Part shown: positions 3,429 to 40,957 of the stretch, piece after piece
How the letters are laid out: every line of letters begins with the position of its first letter
Position numbering within the stretch: position 1 is the first letter of the stretch
Source: Candidatus Campbellbacteria bacterium
Lineage (GTDB): Bacteria > Patescibacteriota > Minisyncoccia > Phycocordibacterales > CSBR16-193
Reading direction: 5' to 3'
NCBI GenBank assembly: GCA_007117035.1
Contig: SKHG01000036.1
Span: 7,595 to 71,594 of the forward strand
DNA length: 64,000 nt
Notes under the pieces: model-generated
What the model was told of the DNA's origin: nothing
Seen by the model: only the letters and a program-made list of their open reading frames with translations
The model's database searches: none
Translations under genes and position numbers: made by a program

Positions 3429-5090
3429 ATGACTCAAAAAGAAGCACTTGAGGTAATGAAGATGGGGGTTAATGTTTTTTTGACAGGTGAACCTGGCTCA
3501 GGTAAGTCTTTTGCAATTAATAGTTATGTTAAGTACCTAAAAGATCATGGTGTTGAACCAGCGGTAACTGCTTCGACCGGCATCGCTGCCACCCATATCG
3601 CTGGTTATACTATTCACTCCTGGAGTGGAATCGGAATTCGTAATCATCTAGACATGTACGAGCTTGAAGCTCTGAATGAAAAACAATACTTAGTTAAGAG
3701 AATTAGAAAAACTAAAGTTTTAATAATTGATGAGGTTTCGATGTTGGATGGAAGGATTTTAGATACTGTTGATATGGTTATGAAGACCATAAAACAGAAT
3801 GAACTCCCGTTTGGTGGAGTTCAGGTTATTTTAGTCGGTGATTTTTTTCAACTACCACCAGTTTCTAGAGATAGATCAGCTTTTTTTGCTTTTGAGTCTG
3901 AGAGTTGGACGAAGGCTAGGTTGGCCACCTGCTATTTGACCGAACAGTTTCGGCAGGAGGATGAAAATATCTGTGAGTTACTTTCAGCTTTTCGCCGATC
4001 TGCTTTAGAGAGAGTTCATTATGAGATGATAGAGTCTCGAATCTGTACAGATGAAAGTTTGGTCCCAAAAGAGTCACCCAAACTTTTTTCGCACAACAAT
4101 GATGTGGACAGAGTTAATGATCTTGAGCTAGAAAAGATTGACGAAGAAGGAAAACTTTTTGTGATGGATTCAAAAGGTAGATCTAGTTTGGTGGAGCAAT
4201 TAAAAAAAGGGTGTTTGTCACCAGAAAGGCTGAACATTAAAATTGGCGCTGTAGTAATGTGTACTAAGAATAATTTTGAGGCAGGTTTTGTGAACGGAAC
4301 AGTTGGAGTTGTCGAGTCTGTTGATCGTCGAACTGGACATCCAGTCATTAAAACTAAAGATAATCGAAGAATTTTAGTTTCGGCTATGGAGTGGTCAATA
4401 GATGAAGACGGCAAGGTTTTAGCTAAAGTTACTCAGATTCCACTTCGTTTAGCTTGGGCTATTACGGTCCACAAAAGTCAGGGAGTGAGTCTTGATTCGG
4501 CATTAATAGATCTGTCTCGTTCTTTCGAATTTGGTCAGGGTTATGTCGCGCTCTCTCGACTTCGAAGCCTCGATGGTTTGTTCTGTTTGGGATATAACGA
4601 AAGAGCTTTCGAGGTTAACCCAAAAATTTCTGAAGTAGACGAAGATTTTAGGAAAAGTTCTCTAATTGCTAGTAAAAGGTTTGGGGTTATGAAAAATGAG
4701 GAGGTGATAAAAAAACAGGATGATTTTTTGTTATCTTCTGGTGGATGTAAAGATATTGAAACAAAGCAAAAAACAAAAAAGAAAACTACTTATGATGTTA
4801 CGGCTGAGATGGTAAAATTTGAAGCTGGTCTAGAATCGGTTGCGAAGGCTAGGAAGTTAACTGTAACCACTGTACTAGGCCATCTGGAGAAGTTAATTCA
4901 GTCTGGATCTATAAAGACTAAAGACATAAAACATCTTTGGAATGATCGTGGTCGTAATGAACGAGAGCTACAAGAGATTCTTAAGGTTTTTACTAAATCA
5001 AAGGATGGAAAACTTCGTCCTGTTTATGATAAATTAAATGGAAAGTATGATTTTGTAGACCTGCGTTTAGCCAGGATACTTCGTAAATAG
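3429..5090 (+). CDS. PIF1/RecD-like ATP-dependent DNA helicase with C-terminal helicase-type HTH (HTH_40-like) extension
   Basis: Walker A GEPGSGKS; DEVSM Walker B; VGDFFQLPPV motif; PIF1-family order of motifs; extra ~110 aa C-terminal domain. Confidence 0.7.
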   Translation: MTQKEALEVMKMGVNVFLTGEPGSGKSFAINSYVKYLKDHGVEPAVTASTGIAATHIAGYTIHSWSGIGIRNHLDMYELEALNEKQYLVKRIRKTKVLIIDEVSMLDGRILDTVDMVMKTIKQNELPFGGVQVILVGDFFQLPPVSRDRSAFFAFESESWTKARLATCYLTEQFRQEDENICELLSAFRRSALERVHYEMIESRICTDESLVPKESPKLFSHNNDVDRVNDLELEKIDEEGKLFVMDSKGRSSLVEQLKKGCLSPERLNIKIGAVVMCTKNNFEAGFVNGTVGVVESVDRRTGHPVIKTKDNRRILVSAMEWSIDEDGKVLAKVTQIPLRLAWAITVHKSQGVSLDSALIDLSRSFEFGQGYVALSRLRSLDGLFCLGYNERAFEVNPKISEVDEDFRKSSLIASKRFGVMKNEEVIKKQDDFLLSSGGCKDIETKQKTKKKTTYDVTAEMVKFEAGLESVAKARKLTVTTVLGHLEKLIQSGSIKTKDIKHLWNDRGRNERELQEILKVFTKSKDGKLRPVYDKLNGKYDFVDLRLARILRK

Positions 5091-20728: not shown

Positions 20729-22192
20729 ATGTCAACACTGGAAGAGATTCGTTTAGTTAGACTAAAAAAACGTCAAAAATTCTTCGATGACGGTTCTTGT
20801 CCTTACCCCAACAAAACTAACAGAGACACAACTATACAAGAAGCAGTAGAAAGGTTTACTGAACTTCTGGAGTCAGGTGAAAAAAAAGTCCTAGTTGGTC
20901 GTGTTATGTCTGTTCGTGGACAAGGGGCTATTTCTTTTGTAAACATTTCTGATGGAACTGGTGATTTTCAAGCTGTTCTACACAAGGGGGAGATAGATGA
21001 CGAAAAGTTAAAAATGTTCAAAGACTTAGTTGATCTAGGTGACTTTATTGAAATTGACGGAGAATTTTTTCTAACCAAACGCGGTAGCCCAAGTCTTAAA
21101 ATTAGAGACTGGAAAATGCTTTCTAAAAGTATTCGTCCTTTACCAGAGAAATGGCACGGATTGAAAAGTAATGAGGAAAGATACAGAAGAAGGTATCTAG
21201 ATATTCTAATGAATCCTGATCTGAAGGATGTTTTTCAAAAAAAATCAGAATTCTGGCGATCGATAAGAACTTTTTTGGAGAAAAGGGATTTCTTTGAAGT
21301 TCAAACTCCGAGTCTAGAGTTAACTACTGGTGGAGCAGAGGCTAGACCATTTAAGACACATCACAACGACCTAGATCTTGATTTATATCTTAGAATATCA
21401 GTTGGTGAACTTTGGCAGAAGCGTTTGATGTCTGCGGGTTTTTCTAAAACATACGAGATTGGAAGAGTTTATCGTAATGAGGGTTCTAGCCCAGAACATC
21501 TTCAGGAATTTACCAATATGGAATTCTATGCTAGTTACATGAATTTTGATGATGGAAAAGAAATGGTTAAAGATCTGTATCGTACAGTTGCGCAGGAAGT
21601 TTTTGGAAAAACTGCATTTGAAACAAGAGGACATAAATTTGATCTAGCAGATGAATGGCCTGATCTAAACTACGTTAATACTATAAAGGAGATGACAGGA
21701 GTTAATGTCTTAGAAAGTTCTGAGTCAGATCTTCAGAAAAAGTTATCAGAACTAGAAATTGAGTATGAGGGGTCTGGTCGTGAAAGAATGATAGATTCAC
21801 TTTGGAAGTATTGTCGTAAACAAATTAGTGGACCAGCATTTTTGGTTGATCATCCCAAAGAAGTCGCACCGCTTTCTAAAACACACGAGGATGACCCGAG
21901 ATTGACTAGAACTTTTCAGATAATTCTAGCTGGTAGTGAAATTGGCCGAGGACATGCTGAACTAAATGATCCTGTTGATCAGGCTGATCGTTTTGCAGAG
22001 CAACAAAAATTAATTGAGGCGGGTGATGATGAGGCGATGATGCCAGATTGGGATTTTGTTGAGATGCTCGAGCACGGCATGCCACCGACTTTTGGATTTG
22101 GAGTAGGGGAGAGGTTGTTCTCATTTTTAGTTGATAAACCTATTCGAGAGGTAACCCTTTTTCCATTGATGCGTCCTAAAGATGATAAGTAG
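20729..22192 (+). CDS. lysS: lysyl-tRNA synthetase, class II
   Basis: OB-fold N-terminus (GRVMSVRGQGAISF); class II motifs FEVQTP and YEIGRVYRNEG. Confidence 0.85.
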   Translation: MSTLEEIRLVRLKKRQKFFDDGSCPYPNKTNRDTTIQEAVERFTELLESGEKKVLVGRVMSVRGQGAISFVNISDGTGDFQAVLHKGEIDDEKLKMFKDLVDLGDFIEIDGEFFLTKRGSPSLKIRDWKMLSKSIRPLPEKWHGLKSNEERYRRRYLDILMNPDLKDVFQKKSEFWRSIRTFLEKRDFFEVQTPSLELTTGGAEARPFKTHHNDLDLDLYLRISVGELWQKRLMSAGFSKTYEIGRVYRNEGSSPEHLQEFTNMEFYASYMNFDDGKEMVKDLYRTVAQEVFGKTAFETRGHKFDLADEWPDLNYVNTIKEMTGVNVLESSESDLQKKLSELEIEYEGSGRERMIDSLWKYCRKQISGPAFLVDHPKEVAPLSKTHEDDPRLTRTFQIILAGSEIGRGHAELNDPVDQADRFAEQQKLIEAGDDEAMMPDWDFVEMLEHGMPPTFGFGVGERLFSFLVDKPIREVTLFPLMRPKDDK

Positions 22193-27776: not shown

Positions 27777-28187
27777 TTAAAAAGTGAGTATGTTTTTTGG
27801 TAAAAGGTTTACACAATTTATTTCATTCAAATCAACCCATTTGAAGTCTATATGATCTTCTTGGGATATTATTTCAAGCCCGTCCTTTATTTCAGCCTCA
27901 AAAATTAAATTAATTTCATGATGCATTTTTTTATTTTCTTCATATGTATGTTCAAAATAATTTCTGAAGGAAATGTTAAATAGATCATCTTTTGATAGGG
28001 CTAGTTCTTCATTCATTTCTTTGTAAATTGTTTTTTCCACGGAGTCACCAAACTCAATGTGTCCTCCAGGAAGATAATAGTGTCCAGATTTTTTACTCAG
28101 ACATAATAAAATTTTTTTTTCTTTTTTTATAATAAGTCTGACTATGTTTTCAATATTGTTCATATGTATGAATACTATACTCTTCAT
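27777..28187 (-). CDS. NUDIX hydrolase
   Basis: Nudix box GGHIEFGDSVEKTIYKEMNEELAL (GX5EX7REUXEEXGU-like). Confidence 0.7.
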   Translation of the reverse strand: MKSIVFIHMNNIENIVRLIIKKEKKILLCLSKKSGHYYLPGGHIEFGDSVEKTIYKEMNEELALSKDDLFNISFRNYFEHTYEENKKMHHEINLIFEAEIKDGLEIISQEDHIDFKWVDLNEINCVNLLPKNILTF

Positions 28188-28233
28188 CTCTTATCTTGTA
28201 TCTAATTATGATTAGTTTGCATGTACATGGTTT

Positions 28234-29145: not shown

Positions 29146-29219
29146 GGTGACCCTACCGGGAATCGAACCCGGATTTCAAGCTTGAGAAGCTTACGTCCTA
29201 ACCGTTAGACGATAGGGCC
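29146..29219 (-). tRNA. tRNA-Glu (anticodon CTC)
   Basis: Reverse complement GGCCCTATCGTCTAACGGTTAGGACG-TAAGC-TTCTCAA-GCTTG-AAA-TCCGGGTTCGATTCCCGG-TAGGGTC-ACC folds as a cloverleaf: 7-bp acceptor stem with one G.U pair, Glu-like D-loop, T-loop GGTTCGATTCC, anticodon loop TTCTCAA. Confidence 0.85.
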
Positions 29220-37603: not shown

Positions 37604-40600
37604 ATGCGTCAATACGATCATAAAAGAGTTGAGAAAAAATGGCAAAAAAGCTGGCAGAAAAGTAATCTATACAAGACTAAGGAAAGTAAAAAGAAAAAGT
37701 TTTACTGCTTAGATATGTTCCCTTATCCTTCAGGTGAAGGTCTGCACGTAGGTCACCCTAAAGGATATATTGCTACTGATATTATTTCTAGATACAAACG
37801 TATGACCGGTCATGATGTCTTACACCCAATGGGATGGGATGCATTCGGTCTACCAGCTGAAAATTATGCAATTAAGAACAAGATACATCCTGAAATGGCT
37901 GTAAAAAATAACGTAAAAAGATTTAAAAATCAGGTCTCAATTTTAGGTTTTGACTACGATTGGTCTCGCGAGATAAACACAACAGACCCAGAGTATTACA
38001 AATGGACTCAGTGGACATTTTTGCAGATGTACAAAAAAGGTTTAGCTTACGAATCAAATGAGCCTATTAATTGGTGTCCAAGTTGTAAAACTGGTTTAGC
38101 TAACGAGGATCTGGAGGATGGTAAATGTGAGAGGTGTAACTCTGAGATAGAACAACGTCCTATTCGTCAGTGGGTTCTTTCAATTACTAAGTATGCAGAC
38201 CGGTTGCTGAAAGACCTTAGTGGTCTTGATTGGCCAGAACATATTAAAGAACTACAAAGAAACTGGATTGGTCGATCTGAGGGATCTTTTATAAACTTTC
38301 AAGTAGGGGAAAAACTTCATTTTATCTTATTACATGGATACAAAGGTTCACCTCAAAAGAATTTTTTCCCGTGGTTAAAACTAGAGTTGGAAAAACAAGG
38401 TCACACTGTCGAAGTCCCTAAATTACCTAAAGCTGATAACCCCGATGTTTTAAAACAGGCTGAGTTTGTTTTGGATAATTGTAGATTAAACAAAGACACA
38501 GTTATTTTAGGACACAGTCATGGTGGATCAGTAGCTATGAAGGTTGTTGAGTCATTGAAAACTCCAATCAAGAGGCTTGTCCTGGCGGCTTCGTTTTTGG
38601 AGCCGAAAAGAAAGTATCAGACTGATTTTAATTGGCAGTATAATTTTGAAAAAATTAAAAAAAATTCTCAAAGAGTTACTGTTTTAAAAAGTCTTAAAGA
38701 CAGTGTTGTTCCTCCATCTGAGTCTGATAAAATTTCGGAAGTAACAAGTGGTGATTTGGTTATTATTAATCCTGAAGAAAACCATATTTGTGGTAAGGTG
38801 GAACCTAAAATTTTTAACGAACTTTCAACGGAGATTAAGATTTTTACAACACGTCCTGACACGATATTTGGTGCCACATACCTTGTTTTATCACCAGAAC
38901 ATTCTATGTTGAAAAGTTTGTGGGATAGAATAAAAAATAAAAAAGAAGTTCAGGTATATATAGACCAAGCTAGAAAAAAAACAGAGCTACAACGCACAAC
39001 CGAGGCAAAAGAAAAAACTGGTGTAGAATTAAAGGGAATCTTTGCTGTAAATCCAGCTACTAAGAAGCAAATACCTGTTTGGATTGCCGATTATGTTCTG
39101 ATTGGATATGGAACAGGAGCTATTATGGCTGTTCCAGCTCACGACGAACGTGATTTTGAGTTTGCTAATAAATTTAAATTACCTGTAAAAAAAGTGATTG
39201 AACCAAAGTTTACTGCTCTCTCAGGTGATGATGCAGTCCGTAAGGGTTTAGACTTTATTAAAAGAGAAGCTGTGTGTGCTGTTGTAAGAGATCCTAAAAC
39301 TGATAAATATTTATGTATCAGCTGGAAGGGAATTAATATGAATGGTTTGGTAACTGGTGGACTTGATGATGGAGAAGATTTGGTGGATGCTGGCCGTCGT
39401 GAAGTCTTTGAGGAAACTGGATATAAAAACTTAAAATTAATTAATGATCCTGATATTGCAATCCATAGTCTCTTTTATCATCGAGTTAAAAAAGTTAACA
39501 GGTGGGCCAGATTTCGTTATGTATTTTTTGAATTAGAAGATTACAGTAGAGAAGATGTGGACGATGTTGAAGCTTCATTACATGAAGTTGTTTGGAAGAG
39601 TAAGGAAGAAATGTCTAACTTTTTTTCGGTTGTTGAGGGTAGGTTTCTATTGAAGATTCTGGAGAATTCAGAAAATATTTATTTAAACGACGGTGTTTTA
39701 ATAAATTCTGGAGAGTTTACAAACCTAGACTCAGAAACAGCTCGAAAGATAATAGTTGAGAAGATTAAGGGGGAATTTACTGTTACTTATAGGCTGAAAG
39801 ATTGGGTGTTTTCTAGACAGAGATATTGGGGTGAACCAATACCATTGGTCCATTGTGAAAAATGTGGCGTTGTTCCTGTACCAGAGAATGATCTACCTGT
39901 TAAGTTGCCAAAGGTTAAAGACTATGAGCCTACCGGTACAGGTGAGTCACCTCTAGCTAATATCTCTTCTTGGGTAAATACAAACTGTCCAAAATGTAAC
40001 GGACAGGCACGTCGTGAGACTAATACTATGCCACAGTGGGCTGGTTCGTCTTGGTATTATTTGCGATACATTGATCCTGAAAACAAAAAAAGTTTAGTGT
40101 CATTAAAAAAAGAAAATCGGTGGATGCCTGTAGATGTTTATGTTGGTGGAGTTGAACACGCTACTCGTCATTTAATATACGCTAGATTTTGGCATAAGTT
40201 TTTGTATGATATTAAATCTGTTAGTACACTTGAACCGTTCCAGAAACTTAAGAGTCAAGGAATGATAAGTGGTCCAGATGGTCGAAAGATGAGTAAACGT
40301 TTTGGTAATGTAATTAATCCAGACACGGTGGTCTCTAATTACGGGGCTGATTCATTGCGTCTTTATGAAATGTTTATGGGACCTTTTGAGCAAGGTGGTT
40401 CCTGGAGTGATAAAAACATTATGGGTGTTAGAAGGTTCTTGGAAAGAGTGTGGAAGATATCTGATAAGATTAGTAAAAGTGCAGTTACTGAGGAGGCTGA
40501 CGAAGTTTTACTAAACAAAACGATTAAACAGGTAACCAAATCCATAGAAGATTTTTCCTTCAATACAGTGATATCTGATTTAATGATTTTGTCCAACAGA

Positions 40601-40957
40601 TTCTGGGACAAAGAAAGTATTAAGTTAAAGGAGTATGAGTCCTTATTGATACTTTTGGCTCCATTCGCACCACATATTACAGAGGAGCTTTGGCAGATGA
40701 TTGGTAAGAAGAAAAGCATTCATGTTGCTAAATGGCCAAGCTTCAACCCAGATAAATTGAAGGATAAAAATGTTAGTATTGTGATTCAAGTTAACGGAAA
40801 AGTTCGCGCAAAAATAGTAGTCGAACAGGGTTCTCAAAAAGGAGAAATACTTGAAAAGGTTAAAAATTTACCAGAGATATTAAAATGGATTCCTACTGAA
40901 AATTTAATTAAAAAGGAAATTTTTATCCCTGATCGATTAATTAATTTTGTAATTTAG
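37604..40957 (+). CDS. leuS: leucyl-tRNA synthetase (bacterial type), 1117 aa, with two inserted hydrolase domains: alpha/beta serine hydrolase at ~38315-38840 and Nudix at ~39200-39690
   Basis: HIGH region (PYPSGEGLHVGH), zinc knuckle CPSCKT...CERC, CP1 editing TTRPDT, AHDERDFEF, VLINSGEF, RLKDWVFSRQRYWGEPIP and KMSKR all in LeuRS order; extra domains described in findings. Confidence 0.9.
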   Translation: MRQYDHKRVEKKWQKSWQKSNLYKTKESKKKKFYCLDMFPYPSGEGLHVGHPKGYIATDIISRYKRMTGHDVLHPMGWDAFGLPAENYAIKNKIHPEMAVKNNVKRFKNQVSILGFDYDWSREINTTDPEYYKWTQWTFLQMYKKGLAYESNEPINWCPSCKTGLANEDLEDGKCERCNSEIEQRPIRQWVLSITKYADRLLKDLSGLDWPEHIKELQRNWIGRSEGSFINFQVGEKLHFILLHGYKGSPQKNFFPWLKLELEKQGHTVEVPKLPKADNPDVLKQAEFVLDNCRLNKDTVILGHSHGGSVAMKVVESLKTPIKRLVLAASFLEPKRKYQTDFNWQYNFEKIKKNSQRVTVLKSLKDSVVPPSESDKISEVTSGDLVIINPEENHICGKVEPKIFNELSTEIKIFTTRPDTIFGATYLVLSPEHSMLKSLWDRIKNKKEVQVYIDQARKKTELQRTTEAKEKTGVELKGIFAVNPATKKQIPVWIADYVLIGYGTGAIMAVPAHDERDFEFANKFKLPVKKVIEPKFTALSGDDAVRKGLDFIKREAVCAVVRDPKTDKYLCISWKGINMNGLVTGGLDDGEDLVDAGRREVFEETGYKNLKLINDPDIAIHSLFYHRVKKVNRWARFRYVFFELEDYSREDVDDVEASLHEVVWKSKEEMSNFFSVVEGRFLLKILENSENIYLNDGVLINSGEFTNLDSETARKIIVEKIKGEFTVTYRLKDWVFSRQRYWGEPIPLVHCEKCGVVPVPENDLPVKLPKVKDYEPTGTGESPLANISSWVNTNCPKCNGQARRETNTMPQWAGSSWYYLRYIDPENKKSLVSLKKENRWMPVDVYVGGVEHATRHLIYARFWHKFLYDIKSVSTLEPFQKLKSQGMISGPDGRKMSKRFGNVINPDTVVSNYGADSLRLYEMFMGPFEQGGSWSDKNIMGVRRFLERVWKISDKISKSAVTEEADEVLLNKTIKQVTKSIEDFSFNTVISDLMILSNRFWDKESIKLKEYESLLILLAPFAPHITEELWQMIGKKKSIHVAKWPSFNPDKLKDKNVSIVIQVNGKVRAKIVVEQGSQKGEILEKVKNLPEILKWIPTENLIKKEIFIPDRLINFVI

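Follow-up and report, generated by a model that had tools for sequence, protein, structure and literature searches.

The subject of this work is a leucyl-tRNA synthetase (LeuRS) gene located in a 64-kb stretch of contig SKHG01000036.1 (64,000 nucleotides, which as a whole are called the window), whose host is a Parcubacteria/Paceibacteria-like bacterium of the Patescibacteria (candidate phyla radiation, CPR). The gene encodes a protein of 1117 aa that is interrupted by two hydrolase domains, namely an alpha/beta-hydrolase (ABH) just before the CP1 editing domain and a Nudix domain nested inside CP1. A previous sequence-only reading of this DNA had proposed a Nudix domain in a LeuRS that also holds a serine-hydrolase insert, and this is borne out by Pfam matches above the cutoffs for both inserts (PF00293 and PF06821) and by a structure model. 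The elements of the gene are listed below, where invariant refers to 65 close homologues.

37604..40957, + strand: LeuRS gene, 1117 aa, host of the two hydrolase inserts (open reading frame, TIGR00396 and PDB matches)
37745..37756, + strand: HIGH signature of the class I synthetic site, in the form HVGH, residues 48-51 (H48, V49, G50 and H51 invariant)
38309..38830, + strand: first insert, alpha/beta (Ser_hydrolase) domain, residues 236-409 (Pfam PF06821)
38831..39205, + strand: N-terminal and main part of the CP1 editing domain, residues 410-534 (Pfam PF13603)
38846-38863, + strand: Thr-rich motif TTRPDT of CP1, residues 415-420 (T415, T416, D419 and T420 invariant)
39140-39154, + strand: aspartate motif HDERD of CP1, residues 513-517 (H513, D514, R516 and D517 invariant)
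39206..39664, + strand: Nudix domain nested in CP1, residues 535-687 (Pfam match over residues 554-670, nt 39263-39613)
39356..39424, + strand: Nudix box GGLDDGEDLVDAGRREVFEETGY, residues 585-607, with the catalytic E600, E603 and E604 (from the translation)
39665..39802, + strand: C-terminal remainder of CP1, residues 688-733, leading back to the Rossmann fold at YRLKDW (Thermus alignment)
40286..40300, + strand: KMSKS loop, in the form KMSKR, residues 895-899 (K895, M896 and K898 invariant)

A LeuRS with a Nudix domain nested in CP1

The host protein is a bona fide bacterial LeuRS of the housekeeping type, which scores 1002 bits against the NCBIfam model TIGR00396 (leuS_bact, cutoff 548) and matches the LeuRS structures of T. 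thermophilus (E 1e-214) and E. coli (E 1e-183) in the PDB. Pfam PF13603 covers residues 408-537 (model positions 20-145 of 185), and the catalytic and editing motif residues are invariant among the 65 homologues, with the exceptions of S897, which is at least 90% conserved, and of the last KMSKS position, which is variable. The alignment with the Thermus enzyme (1h3n) breaks at three points: between query residues 235 and 410 (Tth 237 and 242), where an insert of ~174 aa lies; between 534 and 688 (Tth 364 and 372), which is occupied by the Nudix insert of ~153 aa; and between 889 and 895 (Tth 578 and 637), where the leucine-specific domain is missing. This last domain, of ~58 residues and placed before KMSKS, is found in the LeuRS of Thermus and E. 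coli but is not universal, and its absence in the window LeuRS falls in the region 40268-40288. Compared with bacterial LeuRS enzymes with CP1 (T. thermophilus 1H3N/2BYT and E. coli 4AQ7), the window LeuRS therefore has in common the full-length homology and the HIGH, KMSKS and CP1 motifs, but it adds the two hydrolases and lacks the leucine-specific domain. From its sequence, the protein is strongly predicted to retain aminoacylation and CP1 post-transfer editing, and to be bi- or tri-functional. The first insert matches Ser_hydrolase (PF06821) over residues 241-395 with 27.7 bits (cutoff 22), and its nucleophile elbow, GHSHG, is intact (residues 303-307, nt 38510-38527); an esterase in this position, adjoining the editing domain, might in principle act in tRNA deacylation.

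The identity of the second insert is based on sequence and on structure prediction. Pfam NUDIX PF00293 matches residues 554-670 with 38.1 bits (gathering cutoff 21.1, E 1.8e-9). The box GGLDDGEDLVDAGRREVFEETGY had been proposed to be an exact match to GX5EX7REUXEEXGU, and it does fit this pattern with a single departure, the Tyr at the last ‘U’, which is invariant in the clade. The pattern occurs only once in the window (six-frame open reading frames of at least 50 aa), with a chance expectation that, on a rough estimate, is below 1e-4. Modelled by AlphaFold2 with 61 homologues, residues 535-687 adopt the alpha/beta/alpha sandwich of the Nudix fold, with a mean predicted local distance difference test score (pLDDT) of 94.3 and a predicted template modelling score (pTM) of 0.87. 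In the full-length model (pLDDT 88.1, pTM 0.76), the Nudix region reaches 89-96 and both junctions 83-92, which argues against floppy linkers and suggests that the Nudix domain is a fixed rather than a dangling module of the LeuRS.

The extent given previously for the insert (~155 aa at 39200-39690) agrees well with the ~153 aa (nt 39206-39664) delimited by the Thermus alignment, but its placement between CP1 and the return to the catalytic core has to be corrected. The isolated CP1 crystal constructs (4k47, 3o0a and 2ajg) reach 34-53 residues beyond the point of insertion, and residues 688-733, downstream of the insert, align with Tth 372-417. Since both the CP1-only constructs and the Thermus alignment continue past the insertion point, the topology is that of a Rossmann fold containing CP1, which in turn contains the Nudix domain in a permissive surface loop. 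In close relatives without the insert, this site is a loop of ~21 residues. In some other relatives (compare P0143, P0165, P0194 and P0206), the same CP1 loop is filled by an unrelated domain of ~115 aa, for which a Pfam search gave no match.

Distribution of the fusion and of its Nudix clade

How common is such a LeuRS? A search for homologues of the insert alone returned four proteins, a number that reflects a word-index limit and not rarity, and a profile search returned 270. Among 1.84 billion cluster representatives, the insert has 320 matches with E <= 1e-3, of which 166 reach E <= 1e-10. When the best 150 representatives were sorted with hidden Markov models (HMMs) of the LeuRS segments, 105 appeared in LeuRS context, 39 were short, and five were longer with no LeuRS segment detected; according to Pfam, these five are two LeuRS CP1 fragments, one prolyl-tRNA synthetase (ProRS), one tandem Nudix protein and one protein without matches. 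No non-synthetase host of this Nudix clade was seen among the best 150 representatives. Furthermore, when GTDB was scanned with one representative genome per species, relatives of the insert turned out to be encoded in 366 stretches, of which the best 80 were inspected. Nearly all of these 80 come from records labelled as Patescibacteria, Parcubacteria, Paceibacterota or one of the member candidate phyla, and in 75 of the 80 the Nudix domain is in frame at the same site, between the CP1 and the C-terminal LeuRS segments. The ABH insert before CP1 is sporadic, being found in 6 of those 75 loci and in about half of the 120 closest LeuRS. Ten records of LeuRS with a Nudix domain (L003, L015, L022, L034, L038, L063, L064, L068, L069 and L082) bear metagenome-assembled genome labels of Gammaproteobacteria, Bdellovibrionales, Bacillota or Nanoarchaeota, and are probably mislabelled bins instead of occurrences outside Patescibacteria.

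Among the 120 closest LeuRS, 95 have at least one Nudix copy (from one to three). If N and C stand for the terminal LeuRS segments and NUD for the Nudix domain, the main architectures are the following:

N-CP1-NUD-C: 29 of 120
N-ABH-CP1-NUD-C, the type of the window LeuRS: 27 of 120
N-ABH-CP1-C: 24 of 120
Remaining architectures: one or two extra Nudix copies in the N-terminal half, with a maximum of three per LeuRS

The domain orders are thus combinatorial, with zero to three Nudix and zero or one ABH domains at several sites. The LeuRS of relatives also contain other inserted families, such as Ham1/ITPase (P0273 and P0213), HAD_2 phosphatase domains (P0156, P0161, P0166 and P0230), DUF559 endonuclease-like domains (L052, L056, at the pre-CP1 site, and P0227) and a Ser_hydrolase that is inserted elsewhere (L053). 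Unassigned inserts of ~270 aa are present in L057 and L060, and some of the insert-laden LeuRS of related Patescibacteria are 1434-1564 aa long.

On the basis of its sequence, the window insert is assigned to a CPR-specific Nudix clade. Within LeuRS, the clade occupies the CP1-nested site and, with one or two further copies, a second site; in other Parcubacteria-type genomes it is also found as free proteins of ~157-165 aa, whose gene neighbours are unrelated to LeuRS, and a tandem free-standing form exists too (P0264). There is, moreover, one example in a different synthetase: P0373 (643 aa; JGI contig L084, 2906-4837) is a class II ProRS carrying the same clade between its anticodon-binding and C-terminal domains, with 116.9 bits over positions 6-144 of the family HMM. 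Judging from the sequence, a second synthetase, unrelated to LeuRS, has captured the clade independently, so that the link is with synthetases and not with LeuRS alone, although no further ProRS with a Nudix domain appeared in the metagenome scan and the case stands on one sequence. The question of whether the same fusion exists elsewhere, raised by the sequence-only reading, is hence answered positively for the LeuRS of sister lineages and for one ProRS, but not for the other synthetase of the window, of the Lys/Asp/Asn type, which is free of inserts.

Conservation was evaluated in 389 domain copies, of which 177 are post-CP1, 65 pre-CP1 and 147 free-standing. As to the Nudix-box glutamates, whose conservation in orthologues was one of the points to be checked, E600, E603 and E604 are kept in 84 of 84 related loci, and their retention is 97-100% in the 242 copies embedded in LeuRS and 90-99% in the free-standing proteins. 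Likewise, R554, G585, G586, G606, Y607, K629, N632, R633, L644 and W664 are kept in at least 85% of the copies of all three classes (mostly in 96-100%). The mean identity between the classes is only ~33-43%, and when the 65 aligned LeuRS sequences are compared, the identity is ~36-42% in the Nudix segment versus 61-73% in the core. The Nudix sequence drifts and its active site does not, which points to a long-term purifying selection on catalysis. Two flavours of the box can be distinguished: E...RE, typical of the CP1-nested copies, and Q...AE, typical of the free-standing proteins and of the second, pre-CP1 copies.

Possible roles of the Nudix domain

With a complete and conserved box in a confidently modelled fold, the domain is very probably an active Mg2+-dependent pyrophosphohydrolase. 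What it hydrolyses is less evident. The curated NCBIfam models give only sub-threshold matches (16-28 bits, with cutoffs of 80-475); RppH/NudH, for which a comparison had been suggested previously, leads them, but the scores are far under the equivalog cutoffs (PRK00714; 22.5 and 18.6 bits vs 116 and 118), and the free-standing relatives do not surpass 25-27 bits either (cutoffs ~117). Among characterised structures, the nearest are those of ApnA and diphosphoinositol polyphosphate hydrolases, a weak link at 14-21% identity: they include Ndx1 (1VC8), Rv2985/MutT1 (9CXX), DIPP1 (7TN4), RppH/NudH (4S2Y and 7SP3) and NUDT2 (4IJX), from which the window Nudix differs in failing every curated family cutoff, in being embedded instead of free, and in its clade-specific motifs (EETGYKN, F-Y-H-x-x-K-x-x-N-R and H-x-x-x-W). 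The best structural neighbour, the MutT/Nudix family protein 2AZW of Enterococcus faecalis (16% identity), offers no functional lead, and its function is listed as undetermined in a review of the Nudix clan (PMC5389931). In ApnA hydrolases, a conserved tyrosine of the X-loop, downstream of the box, stacks on the adenine (PMC5389931). The trio F624-Y625-H626 of the window domain, located 17-19 residues past the box, begins with an invariant Phe, after which come Tyr/Phe/Trp and His; compared with the X-loop by sequence position only, it might be the counterpart of that tyrosine, which is only a lead. Similarly, the conserved basic residues among R554, K629, N632, R633 and W664 would fit a polyphosphate-binding pocket. 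Together with the sub-threshold RppH/NudH matches, these residues hint at a nucleoside-5'-polyphosphate compound as the substrate, with dinucleoside polyphosphates such as diadenosine tetraphosphate and triphosphate (Ap4A and Ap3A) as the best guess and an RppH-like 5'-polyphosphate end as a related possibility. The Ap4A-type substrate put forward earlier is thus plausible from the nearest structures and sequence models, but both links are weak. When confronted with the PADLOC defence models, the Nudix insert gave no match, and one free-standing relative a marginal one of 15.7 bits.

Synthetases make Ap4A from the enzyme-bound adenylate and ATP. This, and the presence of the clade in two unrelated synthetases, favours a hydrolase that would work alongside the synthetase on (di)nucleoside polyphosphates such as Ap4A, a proposal which, if the whole chain of reasoning is considered, has about even chances of being right. 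According to it, the LeuRS would generate Ap4A/Ap3A out of its bound adenylate and ATP, and the tethered Nudix domain would remove this by-product or alarmone where it arises, in a bacterium whose genome is minimal. A known parallel is the LysRS-Ap4A-NUDT2 axis, where a lysyl-tRNA synthetase that makes Ap4A is paired with a Nudix enzyme that destroys it, while the bacterial turnover takes place via ApaH and RppH; those are separate proteins, whereas the window LeuRS would hold both predicted activities in one polypeptide. In terms of architecture, it resembles the INS domain of ProRS and the isoleucyl-tRNA synthetase (IleRS) with a GNAT domain (NF040702, a curated precedent that appears in the NCBIfam results for the window LeuRS), all of them cases of an accessory catalytic domain grafted on a class I/II core, although those modules are for editing or acetyl transfer and this one is a Nudix. 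Double MutT/Nudix domain proteins have also been cited (PMC5389931); such multi-Nudix proteins are dedicated tandems, in contrast to the two or three copies, of both flavours, at separate sites of the host enzyme in the sister LeuRS. An even broader scenario would be that the clade has been repeatedly recruited into synthetases (at three sites of LeuRS, with a maximum of three copies, and in one ProRS or more), either to destroy their own dinucleoside-polyphosphate products or to sense them with a feedback on charging, and that, with the ABH, Ham1 and HAD inserts, LeuRS has become a hub where several enzymes take care of nucleotide hygiene and of the control of alarmones. This scenario is speculative, and it is on the doubtful side.

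Several observations weigh against a hydrolase coupled to the synthetase. The sequence permits no substrate assignment, with matches to characterised subfamilies that are all weak and a best structural match of undetermined function; the free-standing homologues show that the chemistry needs no synthetase; the ProRS case is a single sequence; and the unrelated inserts of the sister LeuRS (alpha/beta-hydrolase, Ham1, HAD_2, DUF559 and the 115-aa domain) fit the idea of a permissive scaffold at least equally well. Indeed, the Nudix domain may simply be a hitch-hiker that carries out a general sanitation of the nucleotide pool or of metabolites, unrelated to leucylation, for which LeuRS would be a constitutive and essential carrier whose permissive loops have repeatedly received small hydrolases in streamlined genomes. 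The combinatorial architectures, the variety of hydrolases inserted in sister LeuRS (one Ser_hydrolase at another site included), the filling of the same CP1 loop by the 115-aa domain, the abundance of free-standing homologues without conserved LeuRS linkage, and the faster evolution of the inserted domains with respect to the core are all in line with it. Nevertheless, it does not account so readily for the independent capture of the same clade by ProRS, for the 105 of the best 150 representatives that are in LeuRS context with no host other than a synthetase, or for the tight and confidently modelled junctions in place of flexible linkers; it is a possible explanation, to be taken seriously, if rather an unlikely one.

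The other explanations are considerably less probable. The sequence-only reading had envisaged a proofreading enzyme in which the Nudix domain clears mis-activated aminoacyl-adenylates released by the synthetic site, that is, a pre-transfer proofreading in cis. A location within the editing domain, in a synthetase that edits, would suit this role, and so would the other host, since ProRS also misactivates non-cognate amino acids. Nonetheless, an aminoacyl-AMP is not a nucleoside-diphosphate-X compound, as had been assumed, but an acyl-phosphate (a carboxylic-phosphoric anhydride with one phosphate), and Nudix enzymes attack a diphosphate linkage, the known adenylate hydrolases being HIT/HINT proteins. 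As the adenylate has no diphosphate bond and CP1 retains all its editing residues, with no obvious editing gap to be filled, its hydrolysis is chemically unlikely; the free homologues and the many hydrolase inserts of sister LeuRS, moreover, leave the proofreading role unproven and the link with leucylation possibly loose. We regard this role as decidedly improbable. Little more likely is a non-catalytic module, in which the Nudix fold would serve as a structural, RNA/tRNA-binding or ligand-sensing element, for example to make up for the absent leucine-specific domain: the catalytic glutamates are usually lost from Nudix domains that do not catalyse, but the LeuRS-embedded copies keep these metal-binding residues and the full box. 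Finally, could the insert result from a chimeric assembly, or else be an intein or intron-encoded reading frame absent from the mature product? The rRNA genes of CPR bacteria are known for intervening sequences, and the DUF559 endonuclease-like inserts in sister LeuRS hint at a traffic of mobile elements. However, the insert recurs in frame and at the same site in independent loci (the 75 of 80 mentioned above), its G+C content is like that of the surroundings, its fold is Nudix and not Hint, and its junctions show neither a Cys/Ser start nor a His-Asn end and vary among homologues, so that an artefact or selfish element is hardly credible and this explanation can be considered effectively refuted.

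The earlier impression that this enzyme looks undescribed holds in the sense that a literature search, with most subscription journals outside its reach, brought up no account of a synthetase that contains a Nudix domain; the words ‘tRNA’ and ‘synthetase’ are absent from the comprehensive review of the clan (PMC5389931). It does not hold in the sense of a one-off, given that the fusion is widespread in Parcubacteria-type genomes and that homologues with both inserts have been public since 2015 (KKR13732.1 / UniProt A0A0G0RJC7, from Woesebacteria GW2011_GWA1_39_21b; also A0A1G2QFG9). A protein 100% identical to that of the window is public as well, on a 114-kb contig (P0122; NCBI/ENA/Logan). 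What is new is therefore the recognition and the interpretation, as the sequences themselves were available with automatic Pfam matches. Synthetases are among the best-studied enzymes, and their accessory domains have repeatedly revealed biology, with editing, signalling and Ap4A as examples. A Nudix domain that sits inside CP1, is conserved and appears to be active, and that occurs in up to three copies and also in a ProRS, would act as a ‘Rosetta stone’ linking an uncharacterised CPR-specific Nudix family to synthetase chemistry, and would provide a testable handle on Ap4A-type by-products and nucleotide hygiene in ultra-small episymbiotic bacteria, as well as on the insertion of whole domains into essential enzymes. 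Were the hub scenario true, it would amount to a previously undescribed layer of synthetase biology. The combinatorial, multi-copy and multi-host pattern heightens the interest, which is tempered by the strength of the permissive-scaffold alternative.

Genomic surroundings and related records

The window has ~36% G+C. Of its 49 open reading frames of 150 aa or more, 46 lie on the + strand, and the GC skew, taken in 32 bins of two kb, is positive in 31; the whole of the window appears to lie on one replichore with a strong gene-strand bias. A single tRNA gene was found, for tRNA-Glu (29146-29219, - strand). The other synthetase mentioned above, of class II (20729-22192), consists of a plain OB-fold and core. 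There is also a second Nudix protein in the window:

27780-28190, - strand: free-standing Nudix protein of ~137 aa with a degenerate box, GHIEFGD...KEMNEELAL (PF00293, 46.9 bits)

With 13.6 bits against the clade HMM, it is unrelated to the clade of the LeuRS insert; its best NCBIfam matches, which stay below threshold, are NudI/MutT-like, and no free-standing member of that clade was found within the 64-kb window.

The gene order around the LeuRS gene, with YchF upstream and the sigma-70-r4-like and DUF8128 genes downstream, recurs in two ENA contigs (L001 and L002). In these, nearly every gene is fragmented, the LeuRS included, as is typical of uncorrected long-read assemblies, and their use was restricted to synteny and to showing that the ABH insert is absent. 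In L022, a 181-aa reading frame (3645-4187, + strand) located ~1 kb downstream of the LeuRS with the Nudix domain gives a weaker match to the clade HMM (35 bits), a possible case of embedded and free Nudix domains in one genome.

There is also a practical side to the fusion, which is that free-standing Nudix proteins are already mis-named after the synthetase: two of them, of 157 aa (P0009 and P0011; L079), are called ‘leuS’ in NCBI records, apparently through annotation transfer from Nudix-bearing LeuRS. The converse occurs too, and some LeuRS with Nudix or ABH domains are recorded as ‘alpha/beta fold hydrolase’.

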